DNA of 64,000 bases. Source: a candidate division WOR-3 bacterium (GTDB lineage Bacteria > Hydrothermota > Tepidihabitantia > SM23-42 > JAOAFX01). The stretch is taken from positions 13,658-77,657 of the forward strand of contig JBDRWD010000001.1 of assembly GCA_039802205.1 (NCBI GenBank), written 5' to 3'. Below the pieces are notes generated by a model that worked only from the letters and a program-made list of their open reading frames with translations, was not told the DNA's origin and searched no databases. The position numbers and the translations under genes are program-made. Shown piece after piece: positions 16,082-40,761 of this stretch (position 1 is its first letter; every line of letters begins with the position of its first letter).

Positions 16082-16957
16082 ATGAAAGTTTTACCTATTG
16101 CCTTTGATTCCTTAGGCGCTCGGAGCATGGCGACTTTTATTGAGACAAAAGATGTTAAGATATTCATTGATCCCGCAGTTTCATTGTCACCGGACCGTTT
16201 TTCCTTGCCACCACATAAGGTTGAAATTGATCGACATAGAAAATTATGGGAGGACATCAAAAAATGGGCGTGTCTGGCAGATATAATTATTATCACGCAT
16301 TACCATTATGATCACCATAATCCCAATGAACCGGAATTATTTAAAGAAAAAGAGATCTTTATCAAAAATCCCCATGAATTTATTAATGAAAGCCAGAAAA
16401 ACCGGGCAGCTTTTTTCTTAAGTCAAATAGAGGGTAAAGTCCGCTCAATTGTAGTCGCGGATGGCAGATCGTTTAATTTTGGCCAGACGAAAATCACATT
16501 TTCTCCACCGGTCTATCACGGCCAGAATAATCGTCTGGGTTATGTTTTGATGGTATTAATCGAAGAAAATACGCGGTTTGTCTTCAGCTCTGATATCCAG
16601 GGACCGCTGGTTGAAGAACCGGTTAATTTCATCATAAAAAATGATCCAGAGATTTTGTTTCTGGATGGACCATCAACTTATCTGGTGGGTTCCCATTACA
16701 AAAAAACGGACATGGAATGTGCATTGAATTATTTAAAAAAGATTATCAGCAGTACCCAAATAAAGGACTTCGTCATTGATCACCACCTTTTACGTGATCT
16801 CAACTGGGAGGACTTTGTTGTCAATCTTAGAAATATCAACCACAAGACCAAAATTCAATCGGCAGCTCGATTTCGAGGCAATCCTGAAGACTTGCTGGAA
16901 GCCCGGCGCAAAGATTTTTATGAGGGTAAGTGTCAATTCGTCGATCGGTATGAGTGA
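16082..16957 (+). CDS. MBL-fold metallo-hydrolase (archaeal UPF0282-like)
   Basis: HYHYDHHNP metal-binding motif and beta-lactamase-fold spacing. The 3' end overlaps the MoxR start by 4 nt. Confidence 0.55.
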   Translation: MKVLPIAFDSLGARSMATFIETKDVKIFIDPAVSLSPDRFSLPPHKVEIDRHRKLWEDIKKWACLADIIIITHYHYDHHNPNEPELFKEKEIFIKNPHEFINESQKNRAAFFLSQIEGKVRSIVVADGRSFNFGQTKITFSPPVYHGQNNRLGYVLMVLIEENTRFVFSSDIQGPLVEEPVNFIIKNDPEILFLDGPSTYLVGSHYKKTDMECALNYLKKIISSTQIKDFVIDHHLLRDLNWEDFVVNLRNINHKTKIQSAARFRGNPEDLLEARRKDFYEGKCQFVDRYE

Positions 16958-17952
16958 TTAAAATGACCACAACCAACGGCGTCAAGGCTATTCAAAAGAT
17001 CCACGAATATGTAGTAAAAATAGAACAGGAACTCAGTAAGGTTATTATTGGACAAAAATCGGTCATTGAACAGGTTTTAATCTCTTTATTCTGTAATGGA
17101 CATTCTTTGATAATCGGCGTACCGGGTCTAGCTAAGACAATGCTCGTAAACACCATTGCTCAGATCGTCGACCTTACTTTTAATCGTATCCAGTTTACAC
17201 CGGATTTGATGCCTTCGGATATAACCGGAACCGAAGTAATTGAAGAAGACCGGACCACGGGAAAAAGGAATTTTCGCTTCGTCAAAGGACCTATATTTGC
17301 CAACGTAGTTCTGGCTGATGAGATAAATCGCGCTCCTCCCAAGACCCAGTCGGCTCTGTTACAAGCGATGCAGGAGTACAAAGTCACTTATGGTGGGCAG
17401 ACTTATCCTCTACCGATACCTTTCTTTGTTCTTGCTACCCAAAATCCGATTGAACAAGAAGGAACTTATCCGTTACCCGAGGCACAACTTGACCGTTTTA
17501 TGTTCACAATAAATATCACCTATCCCAGTCGGAAAGAAGAGATTGAGATTGTAAAGACCACCACCTCGGCATATAAAGCCGACTTGAAAAAAGTTATTAA
17601 TGCGGCTGATTTTACTGATTTACAACAGATTATACGCCGGATACCGGTATCGGATGAATTGATTGAAAGAACTGTAGAGCTTGTTGAGATGACTCGTCCC
17701 GAAAACAATAATGCTCCAGAAATGGTAAAAAAATATGTTGCCTGGGGAGCAGGACCAAGGGCATCACAATACTTAATACTTGGGGCGAAGGCACGGGCAG
17801 CAATGGATGGCAGGTTTTCACCCAACCTTGAAGATGTGCGTTATGTATGCCATCCAGTCTTAAGACACCGGATAATTACAAATTTTGCTGCTGAAGCAGA
17901 AGGAATAAAATCCGATTGGATTATTGATGAACTGTTAAGGAATTTCTTGTAA
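16954..17952 (+). CDS. MoxR-family AAA+ ATPase
   Basis: GHSLIIGVPGLAKTMLVNTIAQ (Walker A), LADEINRAPPKTQSALLQAMQE (Walker B / sensor), about 330 aa. These are diagnostic of MoxR/RavA. Confidence 0.85.
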   Translation: MIKMTTTNGVKAIQKIHEYVVKIEQELSKVIIGQKSVIEQVLISLFCNGHSLIIGVPGLAKTMLVNTIAQIVDLTFNRIQFTPDLMPSDITGTEVIEEDRTTGKRNFRFVKGPIFANVVLADEINRAPPKTQSALLQAMQEYKVTYGGQTYPLPIPFFVLATQNPIEQEGTYPLPEAQLDRFMFTINITYPSRKEEIEIVKTTTSAYKADLKKVINAADFTDLQQIIRRIPVSDELIERTVELVEMTRPENNNAPEMVKKYVAWGAGPRASQYLILGAKARAAMDGRFSPNLEDVRYVCHPVLRHRIITNFAAEAEGIKSDWIIDELLRNFL

Positions 17953-18046
17953 TGTAGGGCAAACCTTCAGGTTTGCATTATCAACTTAAAAAGGGGCGGC
18001 TTTTGCCACCCCTTTTGTTTATCGCGGCTTTAAGCCGCTCCTACCA
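17953..18046. repeat. Cloverleaf-type palindromic intergenic element, copy A. It fills the gap between the convergent MoxR and T9SS genes and contains a bidirectional terminator-like hairpin.
   Basis: Outer stem TGTAGG…CCTAC(C)A. Inner hairpins GCAAACC-TTCA-GGTTTGC, AAAAGGGG-(12 nt)-CCCCTTTT and GCGGC-TTTAA-GCCGC. The 3' motif CCTACCATTT is shared with copy B. Confidence 0.55.
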
Positions 18047-18056
18047 TTTGCTGGAT

Positions 18057-20039
18057 TTACCGCACTATCGTCATCGTCTTGGTCGCAGTTCCTTCAGGTG
18101 TTTCAACCCGCACAAAGTAAATACCATTGGGAAGTTCCTGATTGTTTAAGTTGAGTGTATATGTGCCTGCTGATTTAGACTCGTTCACAATATTGTCAAC
18201 CAATCTGCCACTTGCATTATAAATAGATACCTTCACAATGCCCGGATTCTTTGTGGTATATGAAACTTTTGCAGACCCATTTGAGGGATTGGGGGAGAGG
18301 GCCACATCTATCCGCGCAGTAGGTTTTTCTTTGTGCTCCCAGATTCCATAATTCTCATCCGGGAATGATAATCTTGGGTCAGCATCGCTGGAGTAGGTAT
18401 AATATCGCATCCATACAATGGCTGGGAACCATTGATTGTGTGTAGCATTCCACATCGTTGTCATATCTATTTGATAAAAACCATAAGGCCTGCCAAAGTC
18501 GAAAGAAGAAACTAAGGTATCTATTACATTTGCACCGACAACTTCAAAGTAATTGGGATCATATTTGGACATGTTAGCAAGGGCTGTAGAATCATTGAGA
18601 GTTCGTAAAGCAAAAGGAATATAATAGTTGTCTCCATTATGGTCTTTATAGTAAGACAAGTGATAATAATCTGGTCCGGTGTTATTACCCGCATACTCAC
18701 CATCACAGGATATTACCGGAGTTTTCGTCATAACGACATCACCATCAACTAATTGTGATATAAAATTTCCACCGCTTGCCATCCGGAACAGTATTCTAAC
18801 ATTATAATCAGTTGATGTCCAAGGATATCCGAATGCAACAACAACACTTGGCCGATTATAGTTATGAGATGCTGACACATCAATAGCGTCAATACTTTGC
18901 GAATGCACATATTCGGTCTCTATCCAGGAACCTGGTGCACCTGAGATGCTTTCCAAGATGACAAGTGAATTATTAGACTTTCTGGCAACGAATACAAATT
19001 TATCGGTTGATTGGGAAGCAGCACCTTGGGCACCTTTGGGTATTGCATACACGCTTGATGTCCATGAGGAAGTATAAACAGTTGACCAATTCTGCCCCTG
19101 ATCCGTAGATTGTGCAATTACCACATTACCCGTGGTATAATTATGGTAAATGCAGCAGATACGATGCTCACTCCAAATATGTTCAACACTGAGGTGTGGT
19201 TGTATACAAAAATCGCTTGTGTTTTCTACATTGGAGATCATAGTTTGTGAAGAATCATTCAAGTTGCTAAAACGTCTGACCCATATATCACCTGAAGTAA
19301 TCGATGAAATATATGTATAGGCTTCATACAAATACTGATTCCCAGGGTCGATCACCACGTCAAAAACAATACGATCAGCAGTTGTCGAACCATATGAATG
19401 CCATAAACTCCAAGTATTTCCGTAGTCTGTTGAACGCCAAAGAAACATTGTATCATTACCAATCTCTGAAGTTGAGTTGGAAGCGGTTACGAATACATAA
19501 TTGTTGAAAGAGGCGACTGATGGAGTGATGTGATCTACAAGACTTAGATCAACATAACCCATGTCCCAGCCTGTTCCCTGTCTATTATCATCACGGTCAA
19601 ACCATTTTGGGTTATTAAAATTACTGCCACTTTCTTCATATTCGTTCTTTGGAAGTGTTTTTTCTCTTTCTAAATATTTAATATAGTTTTCTGCCTCGTT
19701 CAAGATATAGGTGAATTCAGCATAATTCCAATCGGTTGGTTGCGATTGTAGTTTTTGCCACAGTTTTTGGAGCCTAATTCTGTATCCAACATATTCATTT
19801 TCTTCAGCAGAATAAACATCTTCGGGTAATCTGGGTAACAGGTTATTAAACCTCCGCTGAAGATCCGTGAGTGTAGACTGTTTTTCATTTATTGACATAC
19901 CTTGCCATTCTTTTGCAAGGGCATTCTTTTCGCTTGTCCAGCCGGTAGGCACTATGATAACATTATCATCTTTTTCTACCGCAAAAAGCGGCGCCAACAA
20001 TATTACAAATAACACTAATGCCTTAATTGTTCTTTTCAT
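18057..20039 (-). CDS. secreted BNR/Asp-box repeat protein with a T9SS C-terminal sorting domain
   Basis: Signal peptide (MKRTIKALVLFVILLAPLFA). Asp-box motifs (STDYGNTWS, STDQGQNWS). C-terminal Por_Secre_tail-like segment (…PNPSNGSAKVSY…VSIYNASGRLV…NGIYFVRVETPEGTATKTMTIVR). Confidence 0.7.
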   Translation of the reverse strand: MKRTIKALVLFVILLAPLFAVEKDDNVIIVPTGWTSEKNALAKEWQGMSINEKQSTLTDLQRRFNNLLPRLPEDVYSAEENEYVGYRIRLQKLWQKLQSQPTDWNYAEFTYILNEAENYIKYLEREKTLPKNEYEESGSNFNNPKWFDRDDNRQGTGWDMGYVDLSLVDHITPSVASFNNYVFVTASNSTSEIGNDTMFLWRSTDYGNTWSLWHSYGSTTADRIVFDVVIDPGNQYLYEAYTYISSITSGDIWVRRFSNLNDSSQTMISNVENTSDFCIQPHLSVEHIWSEHRICCIYHNYTTGNVVIAQSTDQGQNWSTVYTSSWTSSVYAIPKGAQGAASQSTDKFVFVARKSNNSLVILESISGAPGSWIETEYVHSQSIDAIDVSASHNYNRPSVVVAFGYPWTSTDYNVRILFRMASGGNFISQLVDGDVVMTKTPVISCDGEYAGNNTGPDYYHLSYYKDHNGDNYYIPFALRTLNDSTALANMSKYDPNYFEVVGANVIDTLVSSFDFGRPYGFYQIDMTTMWNATHNQWFPAIVWMRYYTYSSDADPRLSFPDENYGIWEHKEKPTARIDVALSPNPSNGSAKVSYTTKNPGIVKVSIYNASGRLVDNIVNESKSAGTYTLNLNNQELPNGIYFVRVETPEGTATKTMTIVR

Positions 20040-23813: not shown

Positions 23814-23944
23814 CTGTAGGGGCAGAGTTTACTCTGCAAGAATCAAGGTTGAGCGAGCTCAACCACTACAGGAAAAATGATTGATTGTAGTGGCAGACCT
23901 CGGTCTGCAGATATCTAAAAAACCGAGTAAACTCGGCCACTACA
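23814..23944. repeat. Two tandem cloverleaf-type palindromic elements (E1 23814-23870, E2 23885-23944) between the C25 peptidase 3' end and the STAND regulator 5' end
   Basis: E1 has outer stem TGTAG…CTACA with hairpins GCAGAGT-TTA-ACTCTGC and GGTTGAGC…GCTCAACC. E2 has outer stem TGTAGTGGC…GCCACTACA with hairpins GCAGAC-CTCG-GTCTGC and CCGAG-TAAA-CTCGG. The E1 hairpin core GAGTTTACTC is the reverse complement of the E2 core GAGTAAACTC. Confidence 0.55.
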
Positions 23945-23959
23945 CGCTTTGCGAATTTA

Positions 23960-26839
23960 CTACCTGATAATCGTCATTATTTTGCTAATGGTCGTTTCCG
24001 AAGATTCCAATCGCACAAAATAGATACCGCTTGGCAATTCATTGTTCATTAATTTAATGGTATGTTTTCCAGCCGGAATAACCTCATCGATTACATTCTT
24101 TATCAACCGTCCAGTTATATCGTAAAGCGAAATTTTGATTCTGTCTTCTTCTTTATTCGTATATGTAAGAGATGCCCATTCAGAACTGGGATTGGGTGTA
24201 ATAATGAACGAAATATTTTTGGATTGTTCTGATTCATTTTCACCTATTCCAATCTGCCAATCATTTCGGTCAAAATAAACTCCGCCATAGACCGGTGAAT
24301 AACTCACATAGACACTTCCATAAACTCCATTGCCTAGGTATTCAATTGATGGTTTTACAGCGTTTCTTGGACGATAATCACCAAATTGCACGGGTGTTGA
24401 CCAGGAACCGTAATAATCACGCCAGGTATAACGGAATCTGCAGCTTGAACCGTCTCCATAAGCATAGATTATTGCCTGACCTCCATTCATCTTCGCAGTT
24501 ATATCAGGGCAGCAAGCAGAAATGGTTGTATCTTCTCCACCCGGAATTCCCCAGTACCAGGATGCACCACCATCATAAGAAGTTTCATATTTGCAGTAAT
24601 AAGGGACCGCAGCACCGGTGCATTCAAAAACAACCAGGATTGTATCTTTATAGGCACCGATTGCAGTGAATTGTGAATTTGCACCAGCAGATAAACTCAA
24701 TACTTTTATGTTAGCACTGTAACGGTAATAATTCGCCTTGGTCACAGTTATTACGACCGTGCCTGAATACTGTGGGGTAATCGGAATGTTTACTGGTGCA
24801 CCCGTAGCAAGTGCCGCACCAATAATCTCTCCATTGGCAGTTAGTGCAATCACTGACCCACTCGTTGCAGTAACTGTGAAATATGTCTGACCCGGTTCAA
24901 TTGTCATTGGATGGTTTACAGTCAGACGTAATGGCGTTCTTGAATAGAGTGTAATAAAACAATCACCGAAATGGTGAAATTCACGCCAGACAAGGCTTTT
25001 GCTTTGTGGGTTTCCAGGCCAGGATGAGGCAGAGAGATAATATTTCCCCGAGGTCATTGCCAGACAAGGTCTCAGGTCACTTGAACCGATTATCCTACCA
25101 AATGTTGGATAACCAGGGTCAAACTGTGGCCAGAGACAATCATAGATTCCCCAGATATATGCGTCATTGCAGAATGATGGGCTTACTGTAGAAGCACAAT
25201 TAACACCCAATGCGCCACACTTTCTACGATGGAATTTTTCAGAAAAGCACTCATAACTCCACTGATAGCGCCCGGTCAAACAATTTGTTGAATAAACAAA
25301 AGGGGGAAGTTGGTTTGTAAGACCATCAAGGTCACTGTTTGTAAAAGAAGGATGTTGCCACCCGAATTCATAACCATGGTCGCGGTGTTGAACCAGAAAT
25401 GCACCGGAATTTATTGCATTTCTTATTCCGATATTATTGCCATTGCTCCACCAGGTTGAATCGTGCTGATTTAGCGTGTCATCAAGCCATCCGACATTAT
25501 ACCAGTATTGAACAACTGAACGTGTGTTTGTCGCAGTTGACCAAGCACAACCTATACTCGGCGAACCACCCGAAACTGTATATTGGCGATTTGGTGATTT
25601 GCCAAGATTGTGGATAAAAAATCCTCGAATTACCTCAGAACACAGTTGGAACCATCGGTCTGTTTCCCAGGAACAGGCGACAAGGGGGTTATTATAGAAA
25701 TTTGTAGAAGTTGGTGGATTTCGTTCATAATTAAGAAATTTATGTATTATTGTATCCAATTGGGCATTATTCTGGGCACAGATACGGCCAATGTGCAATT
25801 CAGGCAATGTATCATTATTGAAATCTACATACCAGTTATCAGAGACACCATCAGGGTAGGGTGGAAGAGCAAAACTCGGTGATGTTATTCCATATACCCT
25901 TCCAGACGATGGATAATCAGATAAAAACAAGACCGCAACTGGCGCTGGATTCCAGGTGTTATAGGCATTCCGCAGAAAATTTTTAATGCTTGCCGAATCA
26001 GAACCGCCGACTTCGCTCAGGGTATACACTTCAGTAGATATGCCCTGGAGTTTACGCCATCTCTTTATTGTATCTGCCCAGGCTTCAAATGTTGCATCGT
26101 TGGGAACAATTATGATATATTCATAACCAGCACGGCTATTAATTCTTTCGGGTGAATAGAAATCAATCTTTGGCAGTGAATTATAATTCAGAATATGATT
26201 TTCAAGTATGGGCTCCCAGAATCTGCTGCGAAGACGGTCTTCGCCAAAATGTCCTGTGCCACCGATAAAATCAATCTTTATTTTGATGTCTTTATATACA
26301 ATCAAATCTTTTGTCACCGGGTTATACTGAAATGGTGTAACACCAAGTAATACAACATCAACCCCTCTGATCTCCCGAATAGGGGAGAGGCAGACCGGAC
26401 TATTCGGGTAATACTCATTTTTGCTATAGATATTCATATCTTTGACATAACGCATTGGTTTATTATCACTATCCATAGGGATATTAGGCGCTGGTGTCAC
26501 TTCAATATTATAAAATGTGTCGGTTCGTGTTTCAAGGATGGTCAATTTTGGAGTAGAACCTTCTGGTATTGCGATATATCTTCCAGTTCCGAGAATATTA
26601 GGTGCGCCTTCTTTATTTGGTAAAAAGAATCCTGGCACACTAAATGTTTTAGTTATTACACCATCAACCTCTTTTTCTTCTATCACCATTTCATGCATAC
26701 TGAAGATTATCTCAACCCCCTGGGGAGTCTCTTTGATTAAGTTGAATAGTGGATACCTTCCCCAGTTGTCTTTAATCTTTATCACCTCACCAGAGTTAAT
26801 GCTAATGATTGACATAATTATTATCGCAATTCTATTCAT
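23960..26839 (-). CDS. secreted gingipain-like cysteine peptidase (peptidase C25 family) with a BNR/ACCPD accessory domain and a T9SS C-terminal sorting domain
   Basis: C25-like core (…YEYIIIVPNDATFEAWADTIKRWRKLQGISTEVYTL…VAVLFLSDYP…). Candidate catalytic dyad His (LVQHRDHGYEFGW) and Cys (VYSTNCLTGRY). C-terminal …PNPSSEWASLTY…ISLYDITGRLI…SGIYFVRLESSETTISKIMTIIR. Confidence 0.6.
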   Translation of the reverse strand: MNRIAIIIMSIISINSGEVIKIKDNWGRYPLFNLIKETPQGVEIIFSMHEMVIEEKEVDGVITKTFSVPGFFLPNKEGAPNILGTGRYIAIPEGSTPKLTILETRTDTFYNIEVTPAPNIPMDSDNKPMRYVKDMNIYSKNEYYPNSPVCLSPIREIRGVDVVLLGVTPFQYNPVTKDLIVYKDIKIKIDFIGGTGHFGEDRLRSRFWEPILENHILNYNSLPKIDFYSPERINSRAGYEYIIIVPNDATFEAWADTIKRWRKLQGISTEVYTLSEVGGSDSASIKNFLRNAYNTWNPAPVAVLFLSDYPSSGRVYGITSPSFALPPYPDGVSDNWYVDFNNDTLPELHIGRICAQNNAQLDTIIHKFLNYERNPPTSTNFYNNPLVACSWETDRWFQLCSEVIRGFFIHNLGKSPNRQYTVSGGSPSIGCAWSTATNTRSVVQYWYNVGWLDDTLNQHDSTWWSNGNNIGIRNAINSGAFLVQHRDHGYEFGWQHPSFTNSDLDGLTNQLPPFVYSTNCLTGRYQWSYECFSEKFHRRKCGALGVNCASTVSPSFCNDAYIWGIYDCLWPQFDPGYPTFGRIIGSSDLRPCLAMTSGKYYLSASSWPGNPQSKSLVWREFHHFGDCFITLYSRTPLRLTVNHPMTIEPGQTYFTVTATSGSVIALTANGEIIGAALATGAPVNIPITPQYSGTVVITVTKANYYRYSANIKVLSLSAGANSQFTAIGAYKDTILVVFECTGAAVPYYCKYETSYDGGASWYWGIPGGEDTTISACCPDITAKMNGGQAIIYAYGDGSSCRFRYTWRDYYGSWSTPVQFGDYRPRNAVKPSIEYLGNGVYGSVYVSYSPVYGGVYFDRNDWQIGIGENESEQSKNISFIITPNPSSEWASLTYTNKEEDRIKISLYDITGRLIKNVIDEVIPAGKHTIKLMNNELPSGIYFVRLESSETTISKIMTIIR

Positions 26840-27904: not shown

Positions 27905-29407
27905 TCATTTTTGAATTATAGCAATCGTTTTTGTTAATGTTCCTTCAGGTGTTTCCATTTTAACAAGGTAGATACCATCCGCCAGTTCTTTTCCATTTAG
28001 CGTTATTGCGTGGGCGCCAGCATGTTTTCTTTCGTTTACAATAGTTCTTACTAATCTACCGGATATATCATAAAGTGAAAGTTTAACATTTCCCGTTTTC
28101 TTAATTGAAAAAGAAATGTTTGTTATGCCATTTGAAGGATTGGGTGAAATCTTGATTTTATCCGATTTTGCACTATAGATTTCATTCTCTGCAATTCCTG
28201 CCCAGTCATTACGGTCAAAGTATGCCGCACCATAGATTGGAGAGTAACTCACATAAATACAACCATAGATATCATTGCCAAGATATTCAATCGCGGGCTT
28301 TATATTGTTTGGTGGTTGGTAGTCACCAAACTGCACCGGTGTTGTCCAGGAACCATAATAATCGCACCAGGTATATCGGAATCTGCGGCTACCACTTGTT
28401 CCATAGGCGTATGCGATACCTTCGCCACCATTGTCTCGTGCGGCAACATCAGGACAACAGGCAGCGGTAGTGGTGTCAGTCAGATTGTAATAAAACCAGG
28501 TATTGCCACCATTATAGGATGCTCCATACTGGATGTAATATGCTACTGCATAGCCACTCCTTTCGTAAACCGTTATTGCTGTATCATGATATGCGCCAAT
28601 CGAAGTAAATCGCGAATTCGGACCCGCAAAAATTGTGGAAAGGCCGGTTCGGTTGCCGTAATAGTCAAACCCATCAATTTGCAGATAGTCATTGTTCTTG
28701 ATATAAGAGGCGAAGGCATAATAATTGGAATATCCTTCATTGGTGCAGGCATCAAGCCCCCGACTGGCATTTGTAACGCCGGTTGAGATTTCATACCAGT
28801 TCACACCCGCAGTGTCACTGTAGAAATATTTTAAGGAGCCATTTTTAGTTATAGCAAATAGATTCTGGTATTGATCATCGAAGTCGTGGTCGCTGACCAG
28901 TGCTATTTCTTTAATAGTATCAACGGGATTTGTGACGACCAAGTCTATATATTGAGCACCGTTATTAAAGTTAACCTGTGCACCATCAGATACACGAAAT
29001 CTAAAAAACCGTACCACATGTGGCGTCCAACTATTCGCGGCAAGATAGTAATGATTACCTGTAGTAGTGAGGCTGAGTTTCGGATTCGGCAGAATTCCAT
29101 TTGCAACAAATGGGTTAGCTTTATAAATCCACGATGCACCTCTATTTGTTGAAAAATACATGTTGATTGAGGTTTGATTACTGAAGTAGTAGTAACACGC
29201 AGCCATGATATGTGAAGTTGGTCTATGTATGTCAAGGGAAACGCAACAGAGAGAGTCTATATCACCTATGCGCACATCATTTCCCCATCGGTCCTCAAGC
29301 GGAACAGGATGTGGTTGGTCATATTCTGTTGGTTCATTTGATTCTGCTCGGGCAGTTACAAAAAATCCCGACAGAAAAATTATTGTACAGATTTTTTTGT
29401 TATTCAT
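27905..29407 (-). CDS. secreted BNR/Asp-box protein with the conserved ACCPD domain and a T9SS C-terminal sorting domain
   Basis: Signal peptide (MNNKKICTIIFLSGFFVTARA). Asp-boxes (STNRGASW, SYNGGNTW). A roughly 150-aa block nearly identical in pattern to the C25 protein (FTSIGAYHDT…ACCPD…RFRYTW.DYYGSW.TPVQFGDY…FDRNDW). CTD …ISPNPSNG…LSLYDISGRLV…DGIYLVKMETPEGTLTKTIAIIQK. Confidence 0.65.
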   Translation of the reverse strand: MNNKKICTIIFLSGFFVTARAESNEPTEYDQPHPVPLEDRWGNDVRIGDIDSLCCVSLDIHRPTSHIMAACYYYFSNQTSINMYFSTNRGASWIYKANPFVANGILPNPKLSLTTTGNHYYLAANSWTPHVVRFFRFRVSDGAQVNFNNGAQYIDLVVTNPVDTIKEIALVSDHDFDDQYQNLFAITKNGSLKYFYSDTAGVNWYEISTGVTNASRGLDACTNEGYSNYYAFASYIKNNDYLQIDGFDYYGNRTGLSTIFAGPNSRFTSIGAYHDTAITVYERSGYAVAYYIQYGASYNGGNTWFYYNLTDTTTAACCPDVAARDNGGEGIAYAYGTSGSRRFRYTWCDYYGSWTTPVQFGDYQPPNNIKPAIEYLGNDIYGCIYVSYSPIYGAAYFDRNDWAGIAENEIYSAKSDKIKISPNPSNGITNISFSIKKTGNVKLSLYDISGRLVRTIVNERKHAGAHAITLNGKELADGIYLVKMETPEGTLTKTIAIIQK

Positions 29408-29611
29408 TTTTCCTCCTCATATATTTTAACCCTCTCCCACCATAGGAGAGTGAAATATTTGGGGGCATTGTTTTTTCACCCTCACCTTTATCTTCTCTTC
29501 TCAAGGGAGAGGACATAATAATAAAGGTGCAATATATCCAGCATCCCAACCCAAACCTATCAACCATATTTTTTAGGTATTTAAGCATTTTGAACCTTTA
29601 GGTATTTTATA

Positions 29612-40457: not shown

Positions 40458-40646
40458 ATGCATACAGCCATTACCTTAAGGTCCGTGAATGAAATTTTTT
40501 ATGAAGAATTTCAGGTTGCGAAGGCATTGGGCGGTCTAGCGAAATATCCGATCGCGGGAAGACTCCTACAGGTAGCCCTGCTGAGTTTCGATGAAAATCG
40601 TCAAAAGAATAAAACGGTCCCAAGTCTTAGAAATAGTCCGATATAA
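40458..40646 (+). CDS. hypothetical small protein (62 aa) in a divergent intergenic region
   Basis: ATG preceded by AAAGGAGG at optimal spacing. The ORF tool's longer 40419 start lacks an RBS. No recognisable domain. Confidence 0.3.
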   Translation: MHTAITLRSVNEIFYEEFQVAKALGGLAKYPIAGRLLQVALLSFDENRQKNKTVPSLRNSPI

Positions 40647-40725: not shown

Positions 40726-40761
40726 CGATTGCGCCCTTCGGGGTGCGAAGTCTTACAATCG
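40726..40761. repeat. Short nested palindrome related to the cloverleaf family (possible degenerate copy C)
   Basis: Outer stem CGATTG…CAATCG enclosing GCGCCC-TTCG-GGGTGCG (UUCG tetraloop). The upstream TTAAAAAC motif resembles the central segment of copies A and B. Confidence 0.3.

Follow-up and report, generated by a model that had tools for sequence, protein, structure and literature searches.

What kind of element forms the cloverleaf-like palindromes that recur between genes in this candidate division WOR-3 DNA is the question raised by positions 17953-18046 of the 64-kb stretch that was analysed as a whole (the window). An earlier note had described a palindromic family with four main copies, and these were found where it had placed them, at 17953-18046 (A), 23814-23870 (B1), 23885-23944 (B2) and 32710-32787 (D). 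What repeats is a single GTAG-tagged hairpin rather than the whole cloverleaf: two different units, placed head to head, make up each cloverleaf, and copy A has an ordinary bidirectional terminator in addition. The elements are probably GTAG-tagged REPs arranged as head-to-head dimers, that is, the GTAG-REP plan in WOR-3.

The plan of the unit emerged from a census of perfect GC hairpins: (T)GTAG, then 1-3 nt, then a perfect GC-rich stem of 5-7 bp closed by a loop of 3-5 nt. In all eight main units, and in four units from other genomes, GTAG lies 1-3 nt ahead of the stem. All four elements of the window are arranged head-to-head, with 9-47 nt between the hairpins of a dimer. Because the tags point outward, they pair with each other and form the outer TGTAG/CTACA stem that had been described; this stem and the inner GC hairpins were borne out in the four main copies. 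In both RNA and DNA folds, the two units of a dimer have different stems and form separate hairpins, and only the tags pair, closing a three- or four-way junction in each dimer. RNA folding gave z-scores of -6.2 (A), -5.0 (B1 and B2 together) and -4.3 (D), with no shuffled sequence equally stable, and single-stranded DNA folds of the elements gave z-scores from -3.3 to -6.3. The CCUUCAGG-type loops that had been claimed for the family are present in only two of the eight units, the others having TTTA, CTCG or TAA. Scores in bits below refer to a covariance model of the unit (R1), with a reporting threshold of 20 bits.

Element A (17953-18046) lies between two convergent genes assigned from ORFs and Pfam, namely a MoxR gene (16954-17952, plus strand) and a gene for a T9SS-tail protein (18057-20039, minus strand). 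The MoxR product is 329 aa in the called gene and 332 aa in the window ORF, which differ in the choice of start codon. The first unit, A-u1 (17953-17977, plus strand; TGTAGG GCAAACC ttca GGTTTGC; 30.6 bits), begins immediately 3' of the MoxR stop codon. The second, A-u2 (18022-18045, minus strand; GGTAGGA GCGGC ttaaa GCCGC; 20.5 bits), begins 12 nt 3' of the stop codon of the T9SS-tail gene. The spacer of the dimer is occupied by a bidirectional intrinsic terminator (17988-18020; A-run, GGGGCGGC tttt GCCACCCC, T-run), so that A is indeed the copy with a bidirectional terminator hairpin between convergent genes. This hairpin is an ordinary bidirectional terminator and no unit of the family, and its stem (GGGGATGGC/GCCATCCCC) is kept in the related loci L084, L100 and L101. 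For each of the convergent genes, the order is thus stop codon, own GUAG-hairpin and shared terminator.

Dimers B1 and B2 are both located 3' of the stop codon of a C25 peptidase gene with a T9SS tail (23960-26839, minus strand; ORFs and Pfam), and a perfect TTGACA-16-TATAAT promoter of the next gene follows downstream of them. B1 (23814-23870) has the outer stem CTGTAG/CTACAG and comprises B1-u1 (23815-23839, plus strand; TGTAGGG GCAGAG ttta CTCTGC; 34.3 bits) and a second unit (23846-23870, minus strand; TGTAGT GGTTGAG ctcg CTCAACC; 27.1 bits). B2 (23885-23944) has an outer stem of 9 bp and comprises a first unit (23886-23910, plus strand; TGTAGTG GCAGAC ctcg GTCTGC; 29.2 bits) and B2-u2 (23920-23944, minus strand; TGTAGTGG CCGAG ttta CTCGG, then TTTTTT; 21.3 bits), which is terminator-like and lies 13 nt 3' of the peptidase stop codon. 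As a separate observation on this region, assembly GCA_039802305.1 contains another IS (ends ..GGGACCTT / AAGGTCCC..) whose insertion point is 3-4 nt upstream of the -35 box in the perfect promoter that precedes a BTAD/AAA/TPR regulator gene (L088 8200-8318; L081 20483-20658, equivalent to window position ~23722); this IS is absent from the window strain.

Dimer D (32710-32787) comprises a first unit (32710-32734, plus strand; GGTAGC CGCACCC ttca GGGTGCG) and D-u2 (32762-32786, minus strand; GGTAGG CGCAGGC ttta GCCTGCG). A decayed third unit of the same IS-adjacent cluster follows at 32835-32859 (minus strand; TGTAGG GCAAGAC tcta GCCTTGT; 20.4 bits). The neighbours of the dimer are the relic of an IS110-family transposase gene (32246-32638, minus strand) and the start of a cyclase gene (32994, plus strand). 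The claim that all copies sit at gene ends therefore fails for D, which lies between the start of the IS transposase relic and the start of the cyclase gene. A CCTACCATTT tail is common to the copies at 17953 and 32710, as had been noted. This tail runs on into the apparent last codons of a T9SS gene, and a likeness between A-u2 and D-u2 that extends into an apparent T9SS gene 3' end means that this pair may stem, to judge from the sequences, from a segmental duplication rather than from transposition.

The statistical case for a family rests on the tag. GTAG stands before 9 of the window's 272 GC hairpins, compared with a background rate of 0.5% (binomial p = 1e-5), and is the most enriched of all 256 tetramers before GC hairpins (corrected p 0.003). 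An outward GTAG is borne by 7 of the 24 strongest GC hairpins of the window, and all seven fall within A, B1, B2 and D. Among the aligned units, stems start with GCA or GCG in 7 of 9. The eight main stems are all perfectly Watson-Crick paired without G-T pairs, despite their differing sequences, and the loop-side pairs of the aligned units vary from one to the next yet are always complementary. The pairing statistics are partly circular, because the units were picked as hairpins; the statistics on the tag and on the GCR start of the stem are not. The unit model returned 10 matches of at least 20 bits in the 64-kb window, two of them outside its training set (B2-u2, 21.3 bits, and the unit at 32835-32859, 20.4 bits). 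In control DNA it returned 2 matches of at least 20 bits in a total of 1.3 Mb from 80 unrelated genomes, the control being loci of a MoxR scan from other phyla with a MoxR identity of at most 62%. The density of units in the window is thus ~100-fold that of the control.

These figures bear directly on whether the elements merely resemble one another by chance, as AT-rich intergenic terminators might. The units are short, their stems differ, and B2-u2 and A's central hairpin resemble terminators, all of which would suit chance resemblance. However, the enrichment of the tag and the control scan effectively refute the idea, a T-run is missing from most units, and the unit is found again in other genomes; chance accordingly deserves almost no credence. 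Likeness to Rho-independent terminators is real in so far as GC-rich hairpins stand directly after stop codons and T-runs follow the central hairpin of A and B2-u2. In contrast to such terminators, six of the eight main units are not followed by a T-run, and the outward GTAG tag is conserved. Intrinsic terminators were consequently rejected as the identity of most units, a U-run being present only at the A central hairpin and B2-u2. A tRNA-like or other known RNA was also rejected, since neither Rfam 15 nor ARAGORN gave support: only three tRNAs in the window reach the Rfam 15 gathering threshold, and the best Rfam match near A is sraA, which scores 28.6 bits where the threshold is 56 (E = 0.66).

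A possible fifth copy had been proposed at 40726-40761, where a single hairpin is found (GCGCCC ttcg GGGTGC; z = -2.1). It is preceded by GTCGATT instead of GTAG, has no partner and is missed by the unit model, and was not counted as a member for these reasons. The hairpin lies 80 nt downstream of a 62-aa ORF (40458-40646, plus strand). This ORF has an AGGAGG ribosome-binding site, lies in a 627-nt gap between divergent genes and has no Pfam match.

Among known systems, the closest comparison is with the GTAG REPs, and E. coli REP/BIME and Pseudomonas REPs were also considered. GTAG REPs have stems of 5-13 bp and loops of 2-20 nt, with dimer partners 1-100 bp apart (Di Nocera, 2013; PMC3733652). 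Head-to-head dimers predominate among them, heterodimers occur and spacers may contain small stem-loops, and family sizes extend from thousands of units to 20-100 or fewer (PMC3733652). The WOR-3 units likewise end a short GC-rich stem-loop with an unpaired GTAG tag, and their stems of 5-7 bp are inside the published range. They form head-to-head dimers with the tags outside and the hairpins at the spacing given above, the dimers are heterodimers, and a spacer is able to hold a stem-loop of its own. Furthermore, the WOR-3 stem variants show complementary changes, the unit content varies between related genomes, and the units are mostly extragenic and downstream of genes. There are also differences. 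The WOR-3 stems are far more diverse than those of classical high-copy REP families, and the family looks very small and locally clustered in the sequence available; unlike in GTAG REPs, one unit is held at an orthologous site across near-saturated divergence.

REPINs are REP doublets that form hairpins, as described by Bertels and Rainey. As in REPINs, an inverted pair of WOR-3 units forms one structure with the tags at its outer ends, and singletons resemble decayed doublets (L084, L100 and L101). REPINs, however, are inverted copies of one sequence paired over their full length, whereas the stems of WOR-3 partners differ and the tags alone pair. The WOR-3 dimers are not strict REPINs, because the paired units differ and fold separately. 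The proposal of a REP/MITE-like family holds for its REP half. Its MITE half does not stand: no target-site duplication was found around A, B1, B2 or D, the inverted ends are only the tags of 5-9 bp, with no terminal inverted repeats beyond them, and no IS end matching the GTAG elements was found.

RAYTs are usually single-copy and often flanked by their REPs. No RAYT/Y1 transposase (PF01797) was encoded by an ORF of the window or listed in the gene tables of the WOR-3 loci, which represent ~5-10% of a genome. We know of no report of REPs for candidate division WOR-3. In other phyla, the same census turned up further TGTAG-tagged families: Ca. Poribacteria OZ242335.1 has TGTAGTT GCCCGAT tYa TCGGGC with stem variants (L027 5497-5650 and 9100-9468), and a Planctomycetota locus (L012 3513-3633) has TTGTAGTTCCGCCTTCAGGCGG twice. 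No RAYT-sized ORF was seen between the REP clusters of the Poribacteria locus.

The earlier note had made its case depend on the motif recurring elsewhere, and it does recur, at unrelated loci in L084, L096, L100, L101 and L089/L091. Recurrence within one genome amounts to the ten matches in the window, and the cases at other loci all come from other WOR-3 genomes. L084 has the unit TGTAG(G/T)GGCAGAGTTTACTCTGCAA at its A locus, and the window has it at B1; TGTAGGGCAAGGCTTTAGCC(T/G)TGC is found in L089, beside an IS, and in L100, at the MoxR locus. The third unit at 32835-32859 has a better copy in L089 (29.4 bits) and a near-identical free counterpart at the L100 MoxR locus. L096 has another unit, TGTAGGGGCAGGGcttgcCCCTGC, at an unrelated locus away from a gene 3' end. 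Identical or near-identical units at unrelated loci of different genomes point to copying. The window units all lie within 15 kb (17.9-32.9 kb), no unit was found in ~16 kb beyond the window ends, and ~54 kb of other WOR-3 loci held only the IS-linked cluster, a decayed pair in L090 and the L096 unit. In the sequence examined, then, the family looks small and clustered.

In the reading as GTAG-tagged REPs, the units would have spread by copying, as is thought for REPs via a RAYT-type Y1 (HUH) transposase, and such an enzyme would read the tag and hairpin on single-stranded DNA. Units that came to reside just after stop codons would be kept because the hairpin serves the host. From their position, the host role would most likely be that of a 3'-end stabiliser or a terminator helper.

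The MoxR/T9SS spacer allowed one site to be followed through related genomes. The comparison covered near-identical strains (L081-L083 and L085-L088), a more distant strain (L084) and other WOR-3 genomes (L089-L091 and L095-L101). A search for homologues of the T9SS-tail protein gave two short matches only, both at orthologous A loci, and a metagenome scan with a lineage-specific 342-aa protein gave no match. In the near-identical strains, the elements are unchanged except for one loop SNP. In L084, A-u2 is identical and ~215 nt are inserted after the first half of A-u1, the insert including a copy of B1-u1 that is identical at 24 of 25 positions. In L101, A-u1 is identical at 24 of 24 positions and lies 17 nt after that genome's own stop codon, and A-u2 is decayed and interrupted. 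In L100, the A-u1 position is occupied by TGTAGGGCAAGGCtttaGCCTTGC, whose stem GCAAGGC/GCCTTGC represents two compensatory pairs relative to the window; an additional decayed copy in tandem lies in the spacer, and A-u2 is decayed or interrupted. The identity of the MoxR gene to that of the window at third codon positions is 0.47 in L101 and 0.53 in L100, and in both genomes the spacer next to A-u1 is unalignable with the window. Since A-u1 is identical in L101 despite the third-codon identity of 0.47 and an unalignable spacer, it is under constraint. On this sequence comparison, A-u1 is strongly conserved across deep, near-saturated divergence, and the family is old. The unit content of the orthologous spacer nevertheless differs among the window, L084, L100 and L101 through gain, loss and decay.

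Conservation of this kind also raises the alternative that the hairpins evolved in the host as 3'-UTR or terminator-associated structures and were never mobile, with (U)GUAG bound or processed via a host protein or RNase and with copies that arose in place or through duplication of gene ends. Deep conservation of A-u1 and its terminator at one orthologous site, with compensatory change, would be expected if this were so. The low copy number, the units 0-13 nt past stop codons in A and B2, the flanks shared by A-u2 and D-u2 that resemble a T9SS gene end, and the lack of a RAYT in the WOR-3 loci examined are all in line with it. Immobile host hairpins fit poorly, however, with near-identical units at unrelated loci of different genomes, and the occurrence of both orientations as perfect DNA palindromes without G-T pairs suits a strand-symmetric DNA element better. 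In addition, three of the five T9SS-tail genes of the window have no downstream unit, and dimer D and the L096 unit are away from gene 3' ends. An origin without mobility is therefore judged unlikely, though it keeps some weight. A general link between the units and T9SS gene ends was rejected, as units follow two of the five window T9SS-tail genes and none of the three in L089. A 14-bp perfect bidirectional terminator hairpin at 61516-61547, between convergent lnt and T9SS-tail genes, has no GTAG units; T9SS gene ends thus do not always bear the element. Two T9SS-tail genes contain a direct repeat of 231 nt with 73% identity (24257-24487 and 28202-28432), which probably represents paralogous C-terminal sorting domains.

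Copy D requires separate treatment, given its position beside a decayed IS1111-type IS (31646-32672, minus strand). The relic, which is no member of the GTAG family, is 1027 bp long, with 18-bp subterminal inverted repeats (TATAAAAGGTTTGTCAAT), a broken DEDD transposase (PF01548) and, downstream of the transposase gene, a long non-coding region. Alignment of 8 IS copies (window, L089/L091, L090, L092/L093 and L095-L099) placed the IS ends at GATATAA on the left and ..TATAGCA on the right, and their flanks placed the insertion site in the loop of the palindrome ..TCCTCTCCAC-TTACGAA|GTGGAGAGGA... In the window, the insertion is flanked by a mutated right palindrome arm (31631-31644) and by the left arm (32932-32945; CTGAGTCCTCTCCA on the minus strand). 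Every IS copy examined has a split or broken transposase. The otherwise intact L089 copy has a 197-nt non-coding region downstream of the transposase gene, and subterminal repeats and a downstream non-coding region are features of the IS1111 family (PMC11187229). At its start (TCTCCACTTA), the non-coding region agrees with the target junction and is therefore a candidate seekRNA guide.

The suggestion that IS110-family elements target these repeats held only in part. The IS relic, which is IS1111-type, does target a palindrome, but a different one from the GTAG elements, and targeting of the GTAG element by the IS was ruled out, the target being the CTCTCCAC/GTGGAGAG palindrome. A copy had been said to abut the IS relic directly; dimer D is close by, 37 nt beyond the IS left end. 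Known IS1111/IS110 elements that land in palindromes include ISPpu9 and ISPpu10 in REPs and IS4321 and IS5075 in Tn21 inverted repeats. The WOR-3 IS resembles them in its DEDD transposase, its 18-bp subterminal repeats, its downstream non-coding region, whose start agrees with the target junction, and its seat in a palindrome loop, and differs in that its target palindrome is no GTAG unit. A bridge or seek RNA was rejected as an identity for dimer D, which is outside the IS ends and upstream of the gene, the non-coding region of the IS being downstream.

The IS-bearing palindrome (CTGAnTCCTCTCCAC..GTGGAGAGGAnTCAG) was located at window 31631-32945, L089 3498-4976 and L090 9714-10739, and in L092 and L095-L099. 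TTGAC(A/T) lies 12-13 nt outside the palindrome arms in four of five outer flanks, and TATAAT 16-17 nt further in four of four (window 32946-32993, L089 4977-5040, L092 1211-1270 and L090 9650-9713). The genes that follow these hexamers encode a cyclase, an S8 peptidase, rpsL and an unknown product, and the sequences suggest that the palindrome may be a promoter-upstream site. The motif GTAAAATAA is shared by the outer left flank in L089 (3489-3497) and the outer right flank in L092/L093 (L092 1211-1219); it could represent a 9-bp target duplication of a larger arm-bounded element, or a chimeric assembly of L089. A second small kind of repeat, CCCTCACCC.. with CCCTCTCCCC/GGGGAGAGG hairpins, is found near IS copies and in one window spacer (L090 9755-9815, L095 9880-9930, L098 ~380-430 and window 29475-29530), and one copy in L090 ends in CTAC.

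Between the left palindrome arm and the IS lie dimer D and the third unit. L089/L091 have an identical dimer D at another locus, equally far from a copy of this IS, and the window, L089/L091 and L090 all have 250-300 nt with GTAG units between left arm and IS, the L090 units being a decayed B2-like dimer in the IS-adjacent position. Since D is identical beside the same IS at a second locus, it cannot be counted as a free element; either the IS carries it along, or both have one landing site and D was inserted into the palindrome that the IS also uses. The occurrence of GTAG dimers inside palindromes is already known (PMC3733652), and modular circles that carry a neighbouring module have been documented for ISPpu9, an IS110-family element (PMC12288879). 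The recurrence of a GTAG module next to the WOR-3 IS resembles ssr9 beside ISPpu9 (PMC12288879).

It could accordingly be argued that modular transposition of the IS1111-type element, or of some larger one with CTGAnTCCTCTCCA/TGGAGAGGAnTCAG arms, has carried all units along as passengers, with A, B1 and B2 as leftovers. The identical dimer D and third unit between arm and IS at two loci (window and L089/L091), the B2-like dimer at the equivalent position in L090 and the precedent of ISPpu9 are consistent with such transport. However, A, B1 and B2 have no arms, IS ends or nearby IS remnants, and the left flank of five other IS copies (L095-L099) is free of GTAG units. A test for a second, decayed left end of the IS at the left arm gave no significant result, and the short-read assembly of L089 may be a chimera joined across the repeat. 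As a general explanation, transport by the IS is rather improbable. A combined history seems similarly doubtful, in which the lineage has no RAYT and the GTAG clusters moved as passengers of the IS1111-type or palindrome-armed element and were then domesticated as conserved 3'-end elements; if true, it would provide a second, RAYT-independent route for spreading REPs.

With GTAG-tagged REPs in head-to-head dimers as the preferred reading, current views are not overturned. The finding would add an uncultured phylum of the FCB group to the hosts of GTAG-tagged REPs. The repeated presence of a REP cluster and an IS1111-type element in one palindrome offers a lead on the landing sites that REPs and RNA-guided insertion sequences have in common. 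The family is small and tractable, with one unit constant over near-saturated divergence and another changing by compensatory pairs, which suggests that some REP units are kept for a host function and are not pure junk.
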